Assembly: GCA_043813365.1 (NCBI GenBank)
Contig: JBDRLB010000004.1
Location: forward strand, 1 to 34,489
Direction of reading: 5' to 3'
From: Candidatus Micrarchaeota archaeon
Lineage (GTDB): Archaea; Micrarchaeota; Micrarchaeia; Norongarragalinales; SBBD01
Length of the DNA: 34,489 nucleotides
The notes beneath the pieces are model-generated. The model was not told the DNA's origin, made no database searches, and worked only from the letters and a program-made list of their open reading frames with translations. Position numbers and translations under genes: made by a program. Below, in pieces: positions 10,075-19,984 of the stretch (positions are counted from its first letter, which is position 1; every line of letters starts with the position of its first letter).

Positions 10075-11211
10075 ATGGGCGAAAAAATGAGAATCGCAAT
10101 TTTGGTGCCTTTCTTCCTTCCGGTTGTAGGGGGAATGGAGGCGCATGCTTACGAGCTAGCAAGGGATCTGAAGAAGAGGGGGCATGAGCCGGAAGTGCTT
10201 ACTGCGAACATGGACCATTCGGGGAAGAAAAGTTTTGCCCCTGCGGAGGAGGTTGGCGGAGTGGAATGCAGGCGCTATAACGTTTGGCTGAGGTTCGGCA
10301 AATTCGCGAGCTTGTGGCCCGGTTTCATTTCCGATTTGGGGAAGTACGACATAATTCACGTGCAGAACATGCGGCATCCGCATACGGATTTAGCGATGAT
10401 ATTCGGGAAGCTGATGGGGAAGAAGGTGGTGATTTCTCCGCAATCCCCGCTGCATGAGGGGACGCATTCGAAATTGCAGGAGCTGTTGATCAAATTTTAC
10501 GACAATCTAATTTTGCCGATCACTTTCCGTTTTTATGATGCAATTTTTGCGCATCATGTGAAGGAGAAGGAGTATTTGGTGAGGCACGGCGCTCCGGCAA
10601 ATAAAATCTATGTTGTCAATTTGGGCGTCGGGGAGGAGACGTTCAAACCGTGCAGGAAGGGGTATTTCTCGAAAGGGGGGAAAAGAATTCTGCTTTTTGT
10701 GGGAAGGCTGAGCAACATGAAGGGGCTGGAGGTTCTGCTGAAGGCATTTGCATTTGCCAAATTGAAAAATTGGCAATTGGTGCTTGTTGGGCCCGATGGA
10801 GGGGAGTTAGGGAAGCTGAAGCGATTGCAGAAGGAGCTGAATTTGAAGAATTTGATTTTCTGGGGGGCTGTTTCGGAGAATGAGGTGGAGAGGGCAACTG
10901 CGGATGCGGACGCATTCATCCTTCCCTCGCAATACGAGCCGTACGGGCTTGTTTTGATCAAGGCTATGGCAAAAGGGGTTCCTTGCATTGCAGTTAATGC
11001 CGGCGGGCCCTCAGAAATAATTCTGGATGGGAAAACAGGCCTCCTTTGCAAATACGATCCTGCGGATATGGCGAAAGCGATGGAAAAAATGCTTGGGAAC
11101 CCTGCGATGCTGAAGCGGATGGGGAAAGAGGCGGAAAAGCGCGCCCGGATATTCACGGTTGAAGAGATGGTGGATAAGTACGAATTGGTTTATGAGAAAT
11201 TGCTGATGTGA
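10075..11211 (+). CDS. GT4-family glycosyltransferase
   Basis: MRIAIL.PFFLPVVGGME, LFVGRLSNMKG, PSQYEPYGLVLIKAMAKG (second Glu of EX7E replaced by Lys). Alternative start 10087. Confidence 0.9.
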   Translation: MGEKMRIAILVPFFLPVVGGMEAHAYELARDLKKRGHEPEVLTANMDHSGKKSFAPAEEVGGVECRRYNVWLRFGKFASLWPGFISDLGKYDIIHVQNMRHPHTDLAMIFGKLMGKKVVISPQSPLHEGTHSKLQELLIKFYDNLILPITFRFYDAIFAHHVKEKEYLVRHGAPANKIYVVNLGVGEETFKPCRKGYFSKGGKRILLFVGRLSNMKGLEVLLKAFAFAKLKNWQLVLVGPDGGELGKLKRLQKELNLKNLIFWGAVSENEVERATADADAFILPSQYEPYGLVLIKAMAKGVPCIAVNAGGPSEIILDGKTGLLCKYDPADMAKAMEKMLGNPAMLKRMGKEAEKRARIFTVEEMVDKYELVYEKLLM

Positions 11212-11220
11212 ATAAGATGG
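11208..11220 (+). repeat. 13-bp direct repeat GTGAATAAGATGG, left copy
   Basis: 12/13 identical to GTGAATAAAATGG at 11803-11815. Confidence 0.6.
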
Positions 11221-11810
11221 CGGAGCAAAAGGAAAGGGCAATACCGGAAAGGGTGGAAGATTTTTTGGATCATCATAGTCGGATCAATGTACATCAAACT
11301 AATTTTAATTTATCCCCCGATTATTATCCTTCCGACCAACATGAGCCGACTTTGGAGGAATTAGTAAGCATCCTTATGCATGGTTTATTACCGCCAGGAC
11401 GAGCCATGAAGTATCAGGCCAGAGGATTAAAGCTGCCCGAGCTAAATAAAAGACCATCGCATTCGACATGGAAGCTAATTTTCTCAAATGATTATAGCTT
11501 GCAACCAAATGGAAGATTGGAAAAAATCGGCCCCATAAGGTGGATAAATGGGATAAGGATTAAAAATCAGCTTAGGAAATTTGCAACTGATAGGAAAAAA
11601 TTGCCGGCACTCGTTTTTTACAAACCCAAATTTCCTCTTGGCTACAATAAGGCGAGAATCCAGCCCCGCTTCATTTTAGGCGTGGTTTTGCCGGAAATGG
11701 CCCAAACGGAAAGAAATAGATGGATTGAAGCGCTTGGTAAGTTCAAAAAACCGCTTTACGATCACACCGGGAAATTGGTATGGAAGCCGGGAATGGAAAA
11801 GAGTGAATAA
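11217..11810 (+). CDS. Hypothetical protein with ADP-ribosyltransferase-like (DarT/Tpt1/PARP-type) signature
   Basis: Fills the gap between GT4 and GT9 exactly and is AT-richer than neighbours. VHQT...LVSILMHGLLPP, RIQPRFILGVV, C-terminal PLYDHTGKLVW. The gene is likely real; the fold call is tentative. Confidence 0.6.
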   Translation: MAEQKERAIPERVEDFLDHHSRINVHQTNFNLSPDYYPSDQHEPTLEELVSILMHGLLPPGRAMKYQARGLKLPELNKRPSHSTWKLIFSNDYSLQPNGRLEKIGPIRWINGIRIKNQLRKFATDRKKLPALVFYKPKFPLGYNKARIQPRFILGVVLPEMAQTERNRWIEALGKFKKPLYDHTGKLVWKPGMEKSE

Positions 11811-11815
11811 AATGG
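11803..11815 (+). repeat. 13-bp direct repeat GTGAATAAAATGG, right copy
   Basis: Contains the ORFan stop (TAA 11808-11810) and the GT9 start (ATG 11812). Confidence 0.6.
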
Positions 11816-13017
11816 GAAAATATTTACACGCAATTCTCTGGAGATTGCTGACGTGGTTGAAGAGGCTGCTCCTAATCGTATTTTGCGGAATAGGAAAACT
11901 GCTCTTCAGTAAGGAGAGGCCGCTGGAACTGGGGAATGTGAAACGGATTCTGGTGATACATGGGGAGCATTCCTCCATAGGAGATGCGGTTCTGTTTTCT
12001 GCGATGCTGCATCCGTTGAGGAGGAAATTTCCGAGAGCGAGGATTGACGTGCTCATAAGGCATCCGGCGGAGGAGATTTTGAAGAACAATCCTAATGTGG
12101 ATGAACTGATTCCGTATTCTGCGGAGGAAGGGACGAATTTGGTGACGCAGGAGTTTGCTCCTTTGAAGGTTGCGGCGGAGTTGAAGAGGAGGAAATATGA
12201 TCTGGTGATCACTTCCGAGCACGCGTTCAGGTTCATTTTGCTTTCATATCTTATTGGAGCTAGGAATCGAGTAGGGTATGATGCTGAAGGGAGGGGCTTT
12301 TTGCTCACGAAAAAAGTTGATTACCCGCCATATGGGAATAGGGACCGGCTGGAGCTGGAGTATTACCTGGATCTGATTAGGGCGATTGGAATTCCCGTGA
12401 AACCGGAGAAGCGATGGATGAATTTGTACTTTGGGAAGAAGGAAAAGGATGCTGCGGAAAAATTCTTGCGGGAGAATAAAATCGGGAAAAACGATTTGAT
12501 TGTGGGAGTGCATGCGGGAGGGGGGATTTGGAAGAAGAGGTGGCCGCTCTACAAATTCGCGAAATTCTGCGATTTGATGGTTAAGAAGCACCATGCGAAA
12601 ATCATCGCATTCGGGGGGAAGGAGGATGTGGCTCTTTATGGGATGATGCAGAAGATGATGAGAGGTAAGATTGCAGTTGCTGCGGGGAAGATGAACGTGC
12701 TGGAAACTGCAGCCCTGCTGGGAAAATGCAAACTCGTGGTTGCGAATGATTCCGCTGTTTCGCATATTGCAGCAACAACGGATGCAAGAGTGCTGGCGCT
12801 ATTCGGAGTTGATTCCCCGAAAAGATGGGCGCCGTTCGGCAACACATACATAATGAAGCACACGCGGCTGACGAAATGCGCGGTTTTATGCAATTACGAT
12901 TACCTTTATGCGATTGACAGGTGCTTTGATGATAAGGCGCCATATTGCATGAATTTGATTTCTGTGGAGGAGGTAGTGAATAAGGCGGAAGGGCTGCTAA
13001 AGGAGGGAAGGAAATGA
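11812..13017 (+). CDS. GT9-family heptosyltransferase (WaaF/WaaQ-like)
   Basis: KRILVI...SIGDAVL, LRRKFPRARIDVL, NNPNVDELI, KRWP, VVANDSAVSHIAA, ALFG...RWAP, C-terminal Cys cluster. Start moved from 11725 to ATG 11812. Confidence 0.92.
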   Translation: MGKYLHAILWRLLTWLKRLLLIVFCGIGKLLFSKERPLELGNVKRILVIHGEHSSIGDAVLFSAMLHPLRRKFPRARIDVLIRHPAEEILKNNPNVDELIPYSAEEGTNLVTQEFAPLKVAAELKRRKYDLVITSEHAFRFILLSYLIGARNRVGYDAEGRGFLLTKKVDYPPYGNRDRLELEYYLDLIRAIGIPVKPEKRWMNLYFGKKEKDAAEKFLRENKIGKNDLIVGVHAGGGIWKKRWPLYKFAKFCDLMVKKHHAKIIAFGGKEDVALYGMMQKMMRGKIAVAAGKMNVLETAALLGKCKLVVANDSAVSHIAATTDARVLALFGVDSPKRWAPFGNTYIMKHTRLTKCAVLCNYDYLYAIDRCFDDKAPYCMNLISVEEVVNKAEGLLKEGRK

Positions 13018-14069: not shown

Positions 14070-15022
14070 TGGCAATTGAAATATCTGCAATAATCGCCTG
14101 CAGGAATGAGGGGAGGGACATCCCCAAATGCCTTGAGGCGCTATCGAAGCAGAGCCTCCGAAAGGAAAAATGGGAGGCGATTTTCGTCGATGGGGGATCA
14201 ACTGATGGAACTGTGGATGAAATAAGGAAATTCAAAGGAAGGATTGCAAACTTAAAAATCATGGATGAAACTGGGAAATTCAAATCCGCTGCGAATGCGA
14301 GGAATATCGGTGCAAAAGCGGCAAAGGGGAGGGTGCTTGCGTTCTTCGATGCGGATAATTTCATAGACAGGGAATATTTGCTCGAAATAGGCAGGGGATT
14401 TGAGAAGGGAATAGATGCGGCAAGCACGAGCTCCTCGGGAATGCCTTCAAAAAGCGTCTGGGCGCATCTTCGGGAGCATGAGACCATGGCATCGAATTAC
14501 CTCGTAAAAACCGGGGAGGGCGTGCAGTTTGTGAACGTAATGACGAAGAAGTGCTTTGAGAGGATCGGAGGGTACGATATACAGTTCACATATGGTGAGG
14601 ATTTGAAACTGCTCGATAAGTTAAGGAAGGCGAAGGCGAAATTCGTGCACCTTCCAAAAGTCAAAACCCATCATCAGGAGGCGGAGAGCCTTGAAGATAT
14701 TGCAAAACAGTCGCGGAGCTGGGGGAAGGGCTTCCATCAGCTGTTCATTTCCGAACCCGCAAGGCATTTCCCGCGCTTGGCGCTGGTTACCGCAAGGGCG
14801 CTATGGTTCCCGCTGTTCCTGGTTTATTTGGCAATGCCGTTCAGGCTGCTGATATTGCTTGTTGCGCTTTTCTATGCGGCAACGATAATCGACGGGATCA
14901 TTGTAGGCTACCGCTCAATGAAAATGGGCGGGAAGCTGAAATATGCCGCATTGATGATCCCCTTCCGGATGATAAGGTCGTTCTATTTCCTGCAGGGATT
15001 CGGGAGGGAGGCGCTAAAGTAA
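14066..15022 (+). CDS. GT2-family glycosyltransferase with C-terminal TM helices
   Basis: ISAIIACRNE, VDGGSTDGT, ARNIG, FFDAD, GGYD...GED. Start moved to ATG 14066 (ATGA overlap). Confidence 0.9.
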   Translation: MMAIEISAIIACRNEGRDIPKCLEALSKQSLRKEKWEAIFVDGGSTDGTVDEIRKFKGRIANLKIMDETGKFKSAANARNIGAKAAKGRVLAFFDADNFIDREYLLEIGRGFEKGIDAASTSSSGMPSKSVWAHLREHETMASNYLVKTGEGVQFVNVMTKKCFERIGGYDIQFTYGEDLKLLDKLRKAKAKFVHLPKVKTHHQEAESLEDIAKQSRSWGKGFHQLFISEPARHFPRLALVTARALWFPLFLVYLAMPFRLLILLVALFYAATIIDGIIVGYRSMKMGGKLKYAALMIPFRMIRSFYFLQGFGREALK

Positions 15023-15973
15023 CGCCTTCAGCTCGGAAATTGAAGGAGCCACCGTTCCCACCTTGGAAACAACAATAGAGGCTGCGCAATTGGCGATTTT
15101 CGCGGCATCGGATGGCGATGCGCCCGCAACTGATGCAAGCGCGAATGATGCAATGACCGTATCCCCGGCCCCGCTGACATCAACCGCATGTGTTTTGAGT
15201 CCGTCGATGCGGGAGAACTTATTTTGGTACAGTAAAAGCATCCCTTTCTCCCCCAGCGTCACTAGCAGGGAATCGGGAAGCAGCTTCCCATGCAGGGATT
15301 GGGCGGCTTTCTTGATCCCTTCCTCGTCAGAAACATCGATGCCGGTTTCCTTGGAGAGCTCCTTCAAGTTGGGCTTGAGCAGGGCGGCGCCCTTCATCCC
15401 ATAGGAAAGATAATTCTTGGAATCGATGAAAACCGGCTTTTTGTGCTTTCCAGCAGCATCAATGATCGCATTCGATGTGCTTTTTGATATGACGCCCTTG
15501 TTGTAATCGGAAATTATCACGCCGTCGCATGAAGGAAGCAGCTTCGCGAATGAATCAAGCAGGGATTTCTCCGCTTTTTCGGGGATTTTTTCAGCTGTTT
15601 CAGAATCCACCCTGAGAATATGCCTATTGTTTGAGAGGATGCGGAGCTTCATTGTTGTGGGGCGGGAGCCATCTGGGATGAGTTCAGCTGAGATGCCTGC
15701 AGTTTTTGCCATTTCGGCGATTTTCCTGCCTTCCCCATCATTTCCAACAAGCCCCAGCAGATGTGCCTTTGCGCCCAGCTGGGAAATATTGAATGCGATA
15801 TTTGCTGCGCCCCCGAGGGAATAGCGCTTTTCAGAAACGTTCACAACGGGCACCGGCGCTTCTGGTGAAATCCGGGTTATTTGGCCCAAAAAATAAGCAT
15901 CGAGCATCACGTCCCCGATGACGAGGATGCGCTTGCCTGCGAAATTGCCAATAATTTTTTTTAAATCCGGCAT
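15014..15973 (-). CDS. rfaE1: D-glycero-beta-D-manno-heptose-7-phosphate kinase (HldA / RfaE domain I, PfkB family)
   Basis: ILVIGDVMLDAY, RISPEAPVPVV, GGAANIA, ISDYNKG, KPNLKE, VTLGEKGM, DVSGAGDTV. Confidence 0.95.
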   Translation of the reverse strand: MPDLKKIIGNFAGKRILVIGDVMLDAYFLGQITRISPEAPVPVVNVSEKRYSLGGAANIAFNISQLGAKAHLLGLVGNDGEGRKIAEMAKTAGISAELIPDGSRPTTMKLRILSNNRHILRVDSETAEKIPEKAEKSLLDSFAKLLPSCDGVIISDYNKGVISKSTSNAIIDAAGKHKKPVFIDSKNYLSYGMKGAALLKPNLKELSKETGIDVSDEEGIKKAAQSLHGKLLPDSLLVTLGEKGMLLLYQNKFSRIDGLKTHAVDVSGAGDTVIASFALASVAGASPSDAAKIANCAASIVVSKVGTVAPSISELKALL

Positions 15974-15976
15974 TTT

Positions 15977-16456
15977 TCACGCCTTGTGCCTCTCCACGAT
16001 TTTTTTTATGGTGGTAGTTGTAGAATAGCCCTTCACGAAGGTGACAAATTTGATTTTGCCCCCGAACTTCTCCACAATTGCTGATTCAGGCAAATCCTTG
16101 GAAGAATAATCCCCTCCTTTCACGTGCACGGAAGGCTTTATTGCCTCGAGAAAATGCTCGGGGGTTGTTTCGGGGAAGACGCACACGTAATCGATGCATT
16201 GCAAAGCCGCAAGCACTTCCGCGCGGTCATCCTCGCTGTTCACGGGCCGGTGCTCGCCCTTTATTTTTTTCACGGAAGCGTCGGAATTTACCCCCACAAC
16301 AAGGATGTCCCCCAGTGCTTTCGCATTCTCAAGGTACCTGACATGCCCGGGATGGAGGATGTCGAAGACGCCGTTGGTCGTGACTATGATTTTGCCAGCA
16401 TCCCTGAATTTTTCGCAGATTTTCGAAAGTGAATCAAGAGTTTGTATTTTTCCCAT
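15977..16456 (-). CDS. rfaE2: D-glycero-beta-D-manno-heptose-1-phosphate adenylyltransferase (HldC / RfaE domain II)
   Basis: TNGVFDILHPGHVRYL, GVNSDASV, KG..RP, VKGGDY, GYSTT. Confidence 0.95.
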   Translation of the reverse strand: MGKIQTLDSLSKICEKFRDAGKIIVTTNGVFDILHPGHVRYLENAKALGDILVVGVNSDASVKKIKGEHRPVNSEDDRAEVLAALQCIDYVCVFPETTPEHFLEAIKPSVHVKGGDYSSKDLPESAIVEKFGGKIKFVTFVKGYSTTTTIKKIVERHKA

Positions 16457-16500
16457 ATGAATCTAATCCCTTTTTTTTAAAAGACGGAATAATTGGAACT

Positions 16501-17040
16501 TCAGGCATTATTAATGATTATTTTCGCAGCTTCCAGCAGGTTTTCCGCAATGAAATCCGGTTTCGTGCCGAACCTGCCATCCTTCCCCCCATATCCGGTT
16601 TTCACCAATATTGATTTGTAGCCGCCCCTTCTTGCAGCCTCAACATCGGATGTCTTGTCTCCCACGACCCAGCATTTGGAAGGGTCAAGCTTGAATTTGG
16701 CTTCCGCATGCTTGAAATTCTTCACATTCGGCTTCCTGCAGTCGCATTTCTCATCCGCATGGTGCGGGCAGAAGTAAATATCTTCATTGGAGAGCGTAAT
16801 GCCCTCCTGTTTCATCAATGAAAGCATCTTCGAATGGATCCGCTCGAGCTGCCCGAACGTGATCTTCCCCTTTGCAATGCCCGCTTGGTTCGTGACGAGA
16901 ATCAGTTTGTAACCGCGGTTTTGGAGCATCAGCAGTGCTTCTAGCGAGCCCTCAATGAATGCCAGTTTTTCGGGGTCGTTCAGGTACTCGACCTCCTTGT
17001 TGATGGTGCCGTCTCTGTCGATGAATACGCCCTTTGACAT
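16501..17040 (-). CDS. gmhB: D,D-heptose 1,7-bisphosphate phosphatase (HAD family)
   Basis: FIDRDGTIN, VTNQAGI, FCPHH...CDCRKP (Zn site), VGDKTSD. Sits inside the heptose operon. Confidence 0.93.
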   Translation of the reverse strand: MSKGVFIDRDGTINKEVEYLNDPEKLAFIEGSLEALLMLQNRGYKLILVTNQAGIAKGKITFGQLERIHSKMLSLMKQEGITLSNEDIYFCPHHADEKCDCRKPNVKNFKHAEAKFKLDPSKCWVVGDKTSDVEAARRGGYKSILVKTGYGGKDGRFGTKPDFIAENLLEAAKIIINNA

Positions 17041-17052
17041 TCACACCCCCCT

Positions 17053-17616
17053 TCAGAATTCCTCCTCAACAAGGCCGCAGATGATGTGCGCAGCAGCAAT
17101 GTGCACTTCCTGTATCCGGTCGGTGCCGTCAGCAGGGACGCAGATGCAAATGTCGGAAAGCGCCTTTAGCTTCCCCCCATCCCTGCCAGTAAATGCGACC
17201 ACCTTTACGCCCATTTTCTTTGCAGAATTTGCCGCTTCCAGCACGTTTTTCGAGTTGCCGCTGGTGCTCAATGCGAATAGCACGTCTCCCTTGGAGGCAA
17301 GCGCTTCAATCTGGCGGCTGAAAATGAGGTCGAATGATGCATCATTCGCAATTGCTGTAATCGCGGATGTATCTGTTGTAAGCGCAATTGCGGGCAACGG
17401 CTGCCGTTCCTTCTTGAACCTCCATACGAGTTCAGCTGCGATGTGCTGCGAATCAGCAGCTGAGCCTCCGTTTCCGCAAATCAGCAACTTATTTCCCCTT
17501 TTCAGGCAATCAATGAGCATTTTTGCCGCTTTTTCAATATCGGGTGCACACTCGTCAGCTGCTTTCCGTCTTGTTTCCGCTCCTTCAATGAGCTGTCTTC
17601 CAATTTCCTCCTTCAC
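17053..17616 (-). CDS. gmhA: Phosphoheptose (sedoheptulose-7-phosphate) isomerase
   Basis: CGNGGSAADSQHIAAEL, TAIAND, FSRQIEAL, STSGNSKNV, RIQEVH. GTG start with GGAGGGGG RBS. Confidence 0.96.
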   Translation of the reverse strand: MKEEIGRQLIEGAETRRKAADECAPDIEKAAKMLIDCLKRGNKLLICGNGGSAADSQHIAAELVWRFKKERQPLPAIALTTDTSAITAIANDASFDLIFSRQIEALASKGDVLFALSTSGNSKNVLEAANSAKKMGVKVVAFTGRDGGKLKALSDICICVPADGTDRIQEVHIAAAHIICGLVEEEF

Positions 17617-18655: not shown

Positions 18656-19984
18656 ATGGGAAACATTGTTGGAAGCGTATTAAAGGTACCTAGTGGAAAG
18701 CATGAAAGGAGCCTTATCATCCTGCTCACGATCATTGCGCTCCCCATAATCGGGTTCGGGATTTACGAGATTTTTGCGAATGACCTCCTAAGAGTGGAGA
18801 GCGACGTCCCAAGCCATGCGATAAGGGGGTATTTTTTCGCTGAAAACCCCAATTTCGTGAGGGAGTGGTACCTGGGAGCGGATATTTTCAAATACTACCC
18901 GCCGGTTCCGATCTGGGTATCGGGGATATTCTACATACTCGTCCCCCAGCCGGGCTTTTCGCTTTCGGTGCTTTTCCTGCTTTGCTTCATCGCGATAATC
19001 GGCGTTTCAGGGCTCATTGCAAAGCAGCTGCAGGAAAAATTCATTCAGGGAGCATTCGCGGGGCTTATGCTGCTTGCATCATACCCCTCGATTTCGAGGT
19101 ACGTGAATGGGGGGAGGTTCGGGGACTTGCTGGGAATGGTTTTCTTCCTCTCATTCGCTGCAATGGCGCTTTCCTACTACAATAAGCCCACGAAAAAACG
19201 GATGGTTGCGCTGATGGGGATTTCATTGTTTGCGATGCTGACGCATTTCCTTTCGGGATTGCTGGTGCTTTCTGCAACCGGCTTAATTTTCGCGTATTCC
19301 CTCTATAAAAAAGACCCCAAGGCGAGGAACGTCTTCCTTATTGCACTCGCAGGGGCGGCTCCTTCCATCCTCTTCTGGGTGCCGTTCTATTTGCAGGCAA
19401 ACCAATGGGTCGCCGGTTCGGGCGTTTTTACGGCGAACACGCATTATGATTTGAGGCACACGCTGTTCTACCTTTTGATAATCATCAACCTTTTCCTGCT
19501 GATAAGGAAGAGGCCGATTGCCGCATATGCAATCGCATTCCTGCTGCTAGTTGGAGGGGCGTACAAATTGGATTCTTTCTCGGTTGTGTTCAAGGAGAAT
19601 TTTGACGGGCTGGAAATGGATGCGCCCTATTCCACAATTGACGGGTATGCGGGACCGGCAATCTGGTCCGTGCTGGCATACAAGGGATTCGTTGGCGATT
19701 ATGGAAGCTATGATCCCGGAGCACCGCCGGAAGTTGTGGAAAGGTTCCTTGCGCTTAATAGGACGGACTGCAAGTCGCTGGACGAGTACTCGGGAATTAC
19801 CGGAGTGAAATACTTCATAACGAACCAAACCGACTTGGAAAGGTGCGGCTATGCGCTCGTATGGGAGGGGAAGAACGACATTTACGATTACTCCGCTGAT
19901 TTCAATGGGAAGGTGCCGCTGCTTGCAGCTGCGAATGAATCGGTGTACTCGGCTAAATTGAGGGTTTACAAAAAAGAAGGATGA
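18656..19984 (+). CDS. Polytopic membrane protein, GT-C-like (lipid-phosphate-sugar dependent) glycosyltransferase candidate
   Basis: TM1 followed by an external loop SDVPSH...W.LG....YYPP, about 10 more hydrophobic segments including LTH, and a soluble C-terminal domain ending GVKYFI. Confidence 0.6.
   Translation: MGNIVGSVLKVPSGKHERSLIILLTIIALPIIGFGIYEIFANDLLRVESDVPSHAIRGYFFAENPNFVREWYLGADIFKYYPPVPIWVSGIFYILVPQPGFSLSVLFLLCFIAIIGVSGLIAKQLQEKFIQGAFAGLMLLASYPSISRYVNGGRFGDLLGMVFFLSFAAMALSYYNKPTKKRMVALMGISLFAMLTHFLSGLLVLSATGLIFAYSLYKKDPKARNVFLIALAGAAPSILFWVPFYLQANQWVAGSGVFTANTHYDLRHTLFYLLIIINLFLLIRKRPIAAYAIAFLLLVGGAYKLDSFSVVFKENFDGLEMDAPYSTIDGYAGPAIWSVLAYKGFVGDYGSYDPGAPPEVVERFLALNRTDCKSLDEYSGITGVKYFITNQTDLERCGYALVWEGKNDIYDYSADFNGKVPLLAAANESVYSAKLRVYKKEG

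Follow-up and report, generated by a model that had tools for sequence, protein, structure and literature searches.

A solitary protein with a predicted ADP-ribosyltransferase fold lies between two glycosyltransferase genes in a Micrarchaeota archaeon

The window, by which we mean the whole stretch of DNA analysed (34,489 nucleotides), makes up all of contig C4 of a Candidatus Micrarchaeota genome of 1.34 Mb (G000, 88.6% complete) and contains, between a GT4 and a GT9 glycosyltransferase gene, an open reading frame for a protein that we refer to as P0001 (Table 1). The frame starts 5 bp past the GT4 stop codon and ends 1 bp ahead of the GT9 ATG, and its own ATG start agrees with a homologue, P0002, that aligns from Met1. 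From aglH to the end of the window, the other scanned genes encode glycosyltransferases, sugar-nucleotide enzymes, a flippase, methyltransferases and an amidotransferase. The preliminary description, which had called P0001 the only gene in this region with no link to glycans, thus holds among the scanned genes, with a membrane protein at 18656 giving only a sub-threshold match and the contig-end ORF at 33831-34487 lying outside the scan.

P0001 is also AT-richer than its neighbours, as described, with a GC content of 0.419 and a GC3 of 0.434 compared to 0.499 and 0.620 for the upstream GT4 gene and 0.481 and 0.582 for GT9. It is not the most AT-rich gene of the window, since a GT4 gene at 230-1381, possibly acquired recently, has a GC content of 0.374, the lowest of the 14 genes measured. 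The C-terminal half of P0001 is basic (23 K+R versus 8 D+E; N-terminal half, 11 versus 13), and the motifs named in the preliminary description, HQT (residues 26–28), LEELVSILMHGLLPP, LIFS, LVFY, RIQPRFILGVVLP and KPLYDHTGKLVW, were all found. Since there is no hydrophobic segment (maximum 19-residue hydropathy 0.73), the protein is predicted from its sequence to be soluble. A Pfam scan matched no family, a promoter and terminator scan stayed at chance level, and four DNA sequencing runs yielded only scattered short contigs, none spanning the ORF.

Table 1. Position of the P0001 gene, its neighbours and its motifs in window coordinates.
Feature	Position	Strand	Remarks
GT4 glycosyltransferase, upstream neighbour	10075..11211	+	directly abuts GT9 in congeners
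Left copy of 13-bp imperfect direct repeat	11208..11220	+	spans GT4 stop and P0001 ATG
P0001, stand-alone ART-fold protein, 197 aa	11217..11810	+	ATG 11217 to TAA 11810; fold from model
beta1 H-Q-T	11292..11300	+	His26 invariant, predicted equivalent of DarT1 His17; Thr28 unconserved
SILMHGLL helix end (S51-L58)	11367..11390	+	matches DarT 'SIL..GIL'; profile match weak (probability 8%, 18 columns)
LIFS, predicted beta2	11475..11486	+	model strand E88-94; Phe89 likely second triad position
LPALVFYK core strand (129-136)	11601..11624	+	Pro130 nearly invariant
Leu141, position of DarT catalytic Glu	11637..11639	+	shortened hairpin; register from 7omu and 8baq alignments
Last core strand RIQPRFILGVVLP	11655..11693	+	most conserved block (mean identity 0.71)
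C-terminal family motif KPLYDHTGKLVWKP	11748..11789	+	mean identity 0.66; Tyr181 invariant
Right copy of 13-bp repeat	11803..11815	+	12/13 identical; spans P0001 stop and GT9 ATG; possible insertion-site duplication
GT9 (heptosyltransferase family), downstream neighbour	11812..13017	+	in 5/5 congeners

An AlphaFold2 model of P0001 built from 12 sequences (pLDDT 83.3, pTM 0.82) was compared exhaustively with 48,161 chains, and ranks 1–19 were all occupied by entries that we take, from their titles, to belong to the ART superfamily, with Z-scores down to 2.9. The top matches were the NAD lobe of yeast Tpt1 (7yw4; Z 6.1, rmsd 3.8, 98 residues aligned), DarTG (7omu; Z 5.9, rmsd 3.7, 115 aligned) and DarT1 (8baq; Z 5.8, rmsd 4.0, 111 aligned). 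Z-scores of 5–6 lie in the range that the search tool calls common; despite these middling values, an unbroken run of one superfamily over the first 19 ranks is unlikely to have arisen by chance from the predicted model. Foldseek on the same model listed Tpt1 first (E 0.018) and included three DarT entries, with nothing at E values up to 0.001.

The relatives of P0001 point the same way. P0019, a partial, Glu-bearing protein from genome G331, matched 7yw4, 7omu and 8baq with Z-scores of 9.1, 8.1 and 8.1. A profile of five relatives made without the query (A5), independent of modelling, ranked 7omu first (E 0.0017) and DarT1 next (E 0.19) among 177,635 PDB sequences, with ARTs making up three of its five matches; the 12-row family profile (A1) gave two unrelated matches against PDB sequences, at E about 0.9. 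P0016, from G247, matched the DarT Pfam model at E 0.003, under the cut-off, and a low-confidence ESM Atlas model lay near DarT and DUF2971 clusters at TM 0.42–0.46. On the strength of these predicted models, the structural ranks, the A5 profile and the Atlas neighbours, P0001 very probably adopts an ART fold, as had been proposed from its motifs.

With DarT (PF14487; 8baq, the DarT2 structure 7omv and the Thermosipho structure 7omu), P0001 shares the fold over 111–115 residues, including the C-terminal helix-strand, as well as the beta1 His, the SIL..GL motif and the I-x-P-R-x-I strand. Unlike DarT, it has, by sequence register, a Leu at the Glu position (E152/E160), a short substrate hairpin, and neither a DarG nor a NADAR partner. 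The C-terminal NAD lobe of Tpt1/KptA (PF01885) is the best structural match; it shares a His in beta1 and the lack of an acidic third residue, and the P0001 model aligns to residues 108–230 of 7yw4 only. Unlike Tpt1, P0001 lacks the N-terminal winged-helix RNA-binding lobe, with just 25 residues before His26, and is patchily distributed. The catalytic set R-H-R-R of Tpt1, as defined in PMC8120803, is absent from P0001. No match to PF14487 above the cut-off was found in P0001, in the 12 members of A1 or in G000, and none to PF01885 in P0001 or the A1 members. P0001 is neither DarT nor Tpt1, though DarT-like in build; identity with DarT was rejected on the missing PF14487 match, the missing Glu by register and the missing adjacent antitoxin.

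CC0527/DUF952 proteins resemble P0001 as single domains like the Tpt1 C-lobe, with a sporadic distribution, an obscure function and a third position that is hydrophobic in the query but mixed across its family; the structural match reaches a Z of only 3.0, there is no DUF952 match, and a second His occurs in just 3 of 12 members of the P0001 family. P0001 also differs in its helix at the N terminus, its long and variable central part and its P-x-Y-D-x-x-G-x-L-x-W tail. Unnamed Bacillota ART-like clusters of the ESM Atlas reached TM 0.53–0.55 and a DUF2971 cluster TM 0.46, values below the bar for naming a family in the Atlas; these proteins are longer (268–337 aa), DUF2971 keeps an ExE motif, and there is no match at the sequence level. 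DUF2971 is described as DarT/AbiGi-like in PMC12522546. AbiGi itself (PF10899) was rejected, with no Pfam or PADLOC match, glycosyltransferases as neighbours and no adjacent AbiGii, as was a PARP-like H-Y-E protein, with no Glu and PARP16 at a Z of only 3.0.

The beta1 His is invariant in all 16 members compared, and Ile52 and Gly56 are conserved in at least 90%, in keeping with the expectation that the His and the SIL..G motif would persist in homologues. The H-x-T motif, which had been put forward as a hallmark, is present in the query, but only 7 of the 16 members have Thr or Ser at H+2. DarT1 contacts the adenine-proximal ribose through His17 and Thr19 and requires both Glu152 and Arg52 (PMC11543638). 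No Arg is invariant in A1, in which the region after the GL motif, where DarT has its catalytic Arg (R51/R52), aligns poorly; seven of the 12 rows have F, H or W in the column of Phe89.

In the 7omu and 8baq alignments the Glu position falls seven residues ahead of the Ile/Val of the I-x-P strand, where both crystal chains carry Ala. Assigned by this sequence register and not by residue-level superposition, the corresponding residue of P0001 is Leu141, which agrees with the earlier remark that no catalytic Glu precedes the RIQP strand, and the triad positions read H-F-L with HQT. Across the 16 members, this -7 position is E in three, T in three, D, H and L in two each, and S, F, K and P in one each; ten have an acidic residue somewhere in -9 to -6, and the query has none. 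Two distant relatives, G247 and G331, keep H-x-T plus Glu. By analogy, loss of the Glu does not prove P0001 inactive, because Glu-less ARTs are known in Tpt1 and CC0527, which have an H-H-h motif (PMC8120803 and PMC9503650). The paralogue P0012 (L001:6320-6829) has His26, a Tyr in what is likely its beta2 and, displaced by two residues from the DarT register, an E-V-H motif; judging by this sequence, it may retain an H-Y-E site that is missing from the window copy. A 172-aa member in G024 (L070:1498-2016) keeps the Glu strand, with the beta1 His not visible by eye.

P0001 had been labelled an ORFan, a label that no longer applies. The paralogue P0012 (169 aa) lies on contig C72 of the same genome (tblastn, E 4e-6), and an exhaustive, length-free phmmer search found ten further proteins among 1.84 billion representatives, with all 11 matches measuring 175–201 aa. 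Three of these ten homologues carry an organism name, each time Candidatus Micrarchaeota. More distant members were found in G247, G323, G331, G010 and G024, the first four of which score 20–28 bits with the A1 profile (shuffles, at most 5.2); altogether, P0001 has about 15 relatives, Micrarchaeota where named. His26, Pro159, Pro179, Tyr181 and Gly185 are invariant in A1. Mean identity is 0.41 in the SIL..G helix, 0.44 in the LPALVF strand, 0.71 in RIQPRFILGVVLP and 0.66 in the C-terminal motif, and only 0.11 over the middle 68 residues of the family alignment, giving a conserved core with a hypervariable middle.

A profile search of 301 phylum genomes matched four, and a wider profile, which took in its own seeds, matched 8 of 400 class genomes, one of the eight (G037) spuriously. 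Family counts leave out G027 (L005, internal stop), G026 (L034) and G037 (L041, overlapping a transposase-like ORF), in whose rows no family-like ORF was found; P0014 (G002) is counted as a weak, position-based relic only (5.5 bits versus 4.7 in shuffles), and the motif counts do not include P0018 (396 aa, 14.3 bits). P0018 (G007 L036:1438-2628) is a basic protein without a Pfam match that ends in I-P-I-Y-D...G-x-L-x-W-P, and possibly represents a longer sister family. The strict pattern H-x-[TS]...SI[LM]xxG[LIV] occurs in one of 13,207 six-frame genome segments and a looser version in ten; because the pattern was tailored to the query, its rarity is weak support for an ART signature.

GC3 lies below that of the neighbours in G000, G002, G007 and G323, and not clearly so in G247, L015 and the full-length G005 copy. 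Because this pattern is mixed, and GC3 of the family copies tracks host GC, fast evolution within the lineage is a better fit than a recent transfer from some distant donor. Only 1 of 14 branches of the family tree is well supported, so we claim neither a donor nor an order of events. Word-indexed protein searches found nothing beyond the query and members already known; pattern scans, an insensitive method, found no relatives in viral contigs, in phage records or, with the single query, in genome contigs, and Foldseek found no match among viral structures at E up to 0.001. For 15 family proteins there was no PADLOC match, and the best PHROGs E value was 0.038. The literature searched contains no description of the family, which could be named in the Aravind-group ART classifications. 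The family is thus rare and fast-diverging, without a Pfam or PADLOC model and undescribed in the literature searched.

In agreement with the preliminary description, no antitoxin accompanies P0001. Its neighbours are the GT4 and GT9 genes, with no adjacent DarG (Macro) or NADAR gene, and no eraser gene was found in its genome. Macro was not found in any of the carrier genomes G000, G002, G005, G007, G010, G024, G247, G323 and G331, nor were NADAR and ADP-ribosylglycohydrolase (ARH) in the five carrier genomes searched for them, including G000. This absence is weak evidence, because Macro is present in only 8 of 40 relative genomes and the carrier genomes are 69–97% complete. As a control, the sole Pfam DarT among the 301 phylum genomes (G278 L043) is accompanied by an adjacent Macro gene; the two are convergent, and the DarT forms the end of an open frame of 644 codons. 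Also, PF01885 (Tpt1) was found in none of the 40 relative genomes, including G000.

The GT4–GT9 slot is empty in all four congeners in which both genes are assembled, with GT4 and GT9 abutting or overlapping; in a fifth, the contig ends inside GT9. Relatives of P0001 occur singly in unrelated operons: between purB and IF2 (G005), fumA and fumB (G007), or sppA and 5-FTHF cyclo-ligase (L015), and, for distant relatives, after an RNase Z-like gene (G247), after endA (G331) or before a poly(A)/CCA polymerase gene (G010). In all, eight other loci adjoin purB/IF2, fumarase, sppA, RNase Z, endA, TrmI, poly(A)/CCA polymerase or a membrane protein gene. These slots are lineage-specific, with the fumarase and purB slots each empty in five of five other genomes, and no family match in the endA slot of four or the RNase Z slot of six other genomes with enough downstream DNA. 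A conserved link to the tRNA-processing neighbours was rejected on the endA and RNase Z slots. One slot alone is shared, that between glmS and a HAD gene: it is occupied by the paralogue (169 aa) in G000, by a relic of 126 aa in G005 and by an ORF of 140 aa, hardly recognisable as a member, in G002, and it is empty in G003 and G004; it belongs to an amino-sugar operon (glmS, HAD, GlmU-like), which is a small point for a sugar link.

P0001 shows no defence-island context. Because the GT4–GT9 slot is empty in congeners and the relatives lie in unrelated operons, the glycan operon is very probably just the place where the gene landed, with no partnership in the pathway. A functional link with surface glycans or ADP-sugars, as put forward in the preliminary description, finds no support in these slots, and the neighbourhoods of relatives sharing the C-terminal motif, which it had proposed to examine, are mostly unrelated, non-glycan operons.

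Several neighbourhoods contain further features of their own. Within the window, 11812-13017 and 15014-17616 carry a set of ADP-heptose genes of bacterial type within a cluster for archaeal N-glycosylation, consisting of GT9, a PfkB kinase, a cytidylyltransferase-like protein, a HAD phosphatase and a SIS isomerase, presumably genes of the GmhA/GmhB/HldE type. In G007 (L008:9123-10337), a MazF/PemK gene follows a gene for a 178-aa protein (no Pfam match at 1e-6) and a 110-aa gene whose product we presume to be a winged-helix regulator; the three may form a toxin-antitoxin unit, which lies at a distance of 2.3 kb from the ART gene. By eye, inteins appear to interrupt a small GTPase (G005 L007:3643-5685) and a polyprenyl synthase (G007 L008:327-2789), and an unrelated basic 276-aa ORF without a known family is embedded in the operon directly downstream of fumB in G009 (L049:651-1481).

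An imperfect 13-bp direct repeat spans the stop-start junction at both ends of P0001, which, at the sequence level, suggests insertion with junction duplication. Outside the ATG, 9 of 11 positions match, a score equalled by 48 of 22,366 pairs of coupled gene starts, and among 54 coupled genes the junction comes second, the first being what seems to be a tandem pair of paralogues, in a ranking that uses crude gene calls made for this analysis. The insert in G007 (L008:6316-6864) opens with the fumB start of G008, its first 16 nt being identical, and thus with the six codons at which fumB starts in related genomes; fumB restarts downstream of the insert, where 9 bp are duplicated at its present start. 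In a shuffle test of inserts, p was below 0.05 in only 3 of 11. The P0001 repeat overlaps ribosome-binding-type sequence, which when shared can mimic duplication, and 13-bp repeats of like quality also arise by chance within the kilobase. No hairpin element was found at the P0001 junctions, where there is almost no intergenic DNA.

With a probability of roughly one half, we read P0001 as a soluble, solitary ART-fold conflict protein that binds NAD+ or ADP-ribose together with nucleic acid and has weak or no DarT-type catalysis. NAD+ or ADP-ribose would likely be bound at the invariant His26 and nucleic acid through the basic C-terminal half, and DarT-type transferase activity would likely be weak or absent because Leu141 sits at the position of the catalytic Glu. 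The gene probably entered at the junction of the GT4 stop and the GT9 start, with a duplication of 13 bp by which it borrowed the translation signals of the operon. Members of the family are found one at a time and with no antitoxin, in housekeeping operons at positions that differ between lineages. Their likely role would be in conflict, either antiviral defence or host-cell interaction, with the window copy acting by binding and not by efficient catalysis; we propose that it is tolerated without an eraser because its catalysis is weak or absent. We infer the ligand binding, the weakened catalysis, the conflict role and the insertion mechanism from these data, and P0001 may likewise have toxin or defence activity.

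Unlikely, though the strongest of the alternatives, is that P0001 is enzymatically active without the Glu, as an ADP-ribosyltransferase or NAD+ hydrolase of the H-x-h type, and serves as a one-gene defence protein or effector that needs no antitoxin because its target is not presented by its own cell. The invariant His, the F, H or W at the likely second position in 7 of 12 and the hydrophobic third position would fit H-H-h, the Tpt1 NAD lobe is the top fold match with CC0527 at rank 17, and P0001 has an intact, tightly coupled frame in a genome that encodes NAD synthase. However, the third position is inconsistently hydrophobic across the 16 members, by sequence the nearest link leads to DarT, an enzyme that depends on its Glu, truncated members without the core exist, and P0001 is missing the R-H-R-R set and N-terminal lobe on which Tpt1 relies.

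A decaying passenger, that is, a formerly active toxin of the DarT type that moved into the operon, then lost its catalysis and now lasts, with no selected function, only until its deletion, is an improbable account, because drift would not preserve what the ten Glu-poor homologues retain at 35–61% local identity, namely full length (175–201 aa), open frames and strongly conserved blocks. Such decay would be consistent with the range of states in the family, from His plus Glu (G247, G331) through His only (query) and Glu without a visible His (G024) to relics of 126–140 aa in one slot, with its rarity (8 of 400 class genomes, one spurious) and with the reduced GC3 of several copies.

We consider a role of P0001 in the glycan pathway, such as the binding or processing of ADP-heptose next to GT9, very improbable: translational coupling to GT9, the heptose pathway at 15014-17616 and the paralogue in the glmS-HAD-GlmU-like operon are in its favour, and an ART cleft could accept an ADP-sugar, but the slot is empty in all four congeners that keep GT9, and the eight other loci lie beside unrelated genes. 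Least credible is a split or divergent Tpt1 NAD lobe for tRNA or RNA repair in Tpt1-less genomes, which has the top fold match, the lack of PF01885 in the 40 relatives and four distant members adjoining or near tRNA-processing genes on its side, and against it the missing RNA-binding lobe with R-H-R-R, a distribution too patchy for housekeeping and the memberless endA (4/4) and RNase Z (6/6) slots of other genomes.

The reading of P0001 as a binding-type conflict protein can be extended to an antitoxin-free Micrarchaeota ART-fold conflict family, some members with His and Glu and others Glu-less, inserting precisely at stop-start junctions with a duplication that keeps the operon intact, and with viral or host-cell nucleic acid as targets; in this full form the proposal is speculative and rather doubtful. 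For the window copy the practical result is modest, in that the assignment of the fold stands and the association with glycans seems incidental. Few proteins for defence or host interaction have been recognised in DPANN archaea, in which a large share of the genes has no assigned function. The duplicated junctions may indicate how fast-evolving genes gain entry to the tightly packed operons of these genomes, and the family offers a natural series, from a full active site to a relic, that would allow a direct test of whether a DarT-like domain can function when it has lost its Glu or has no antitoxin.
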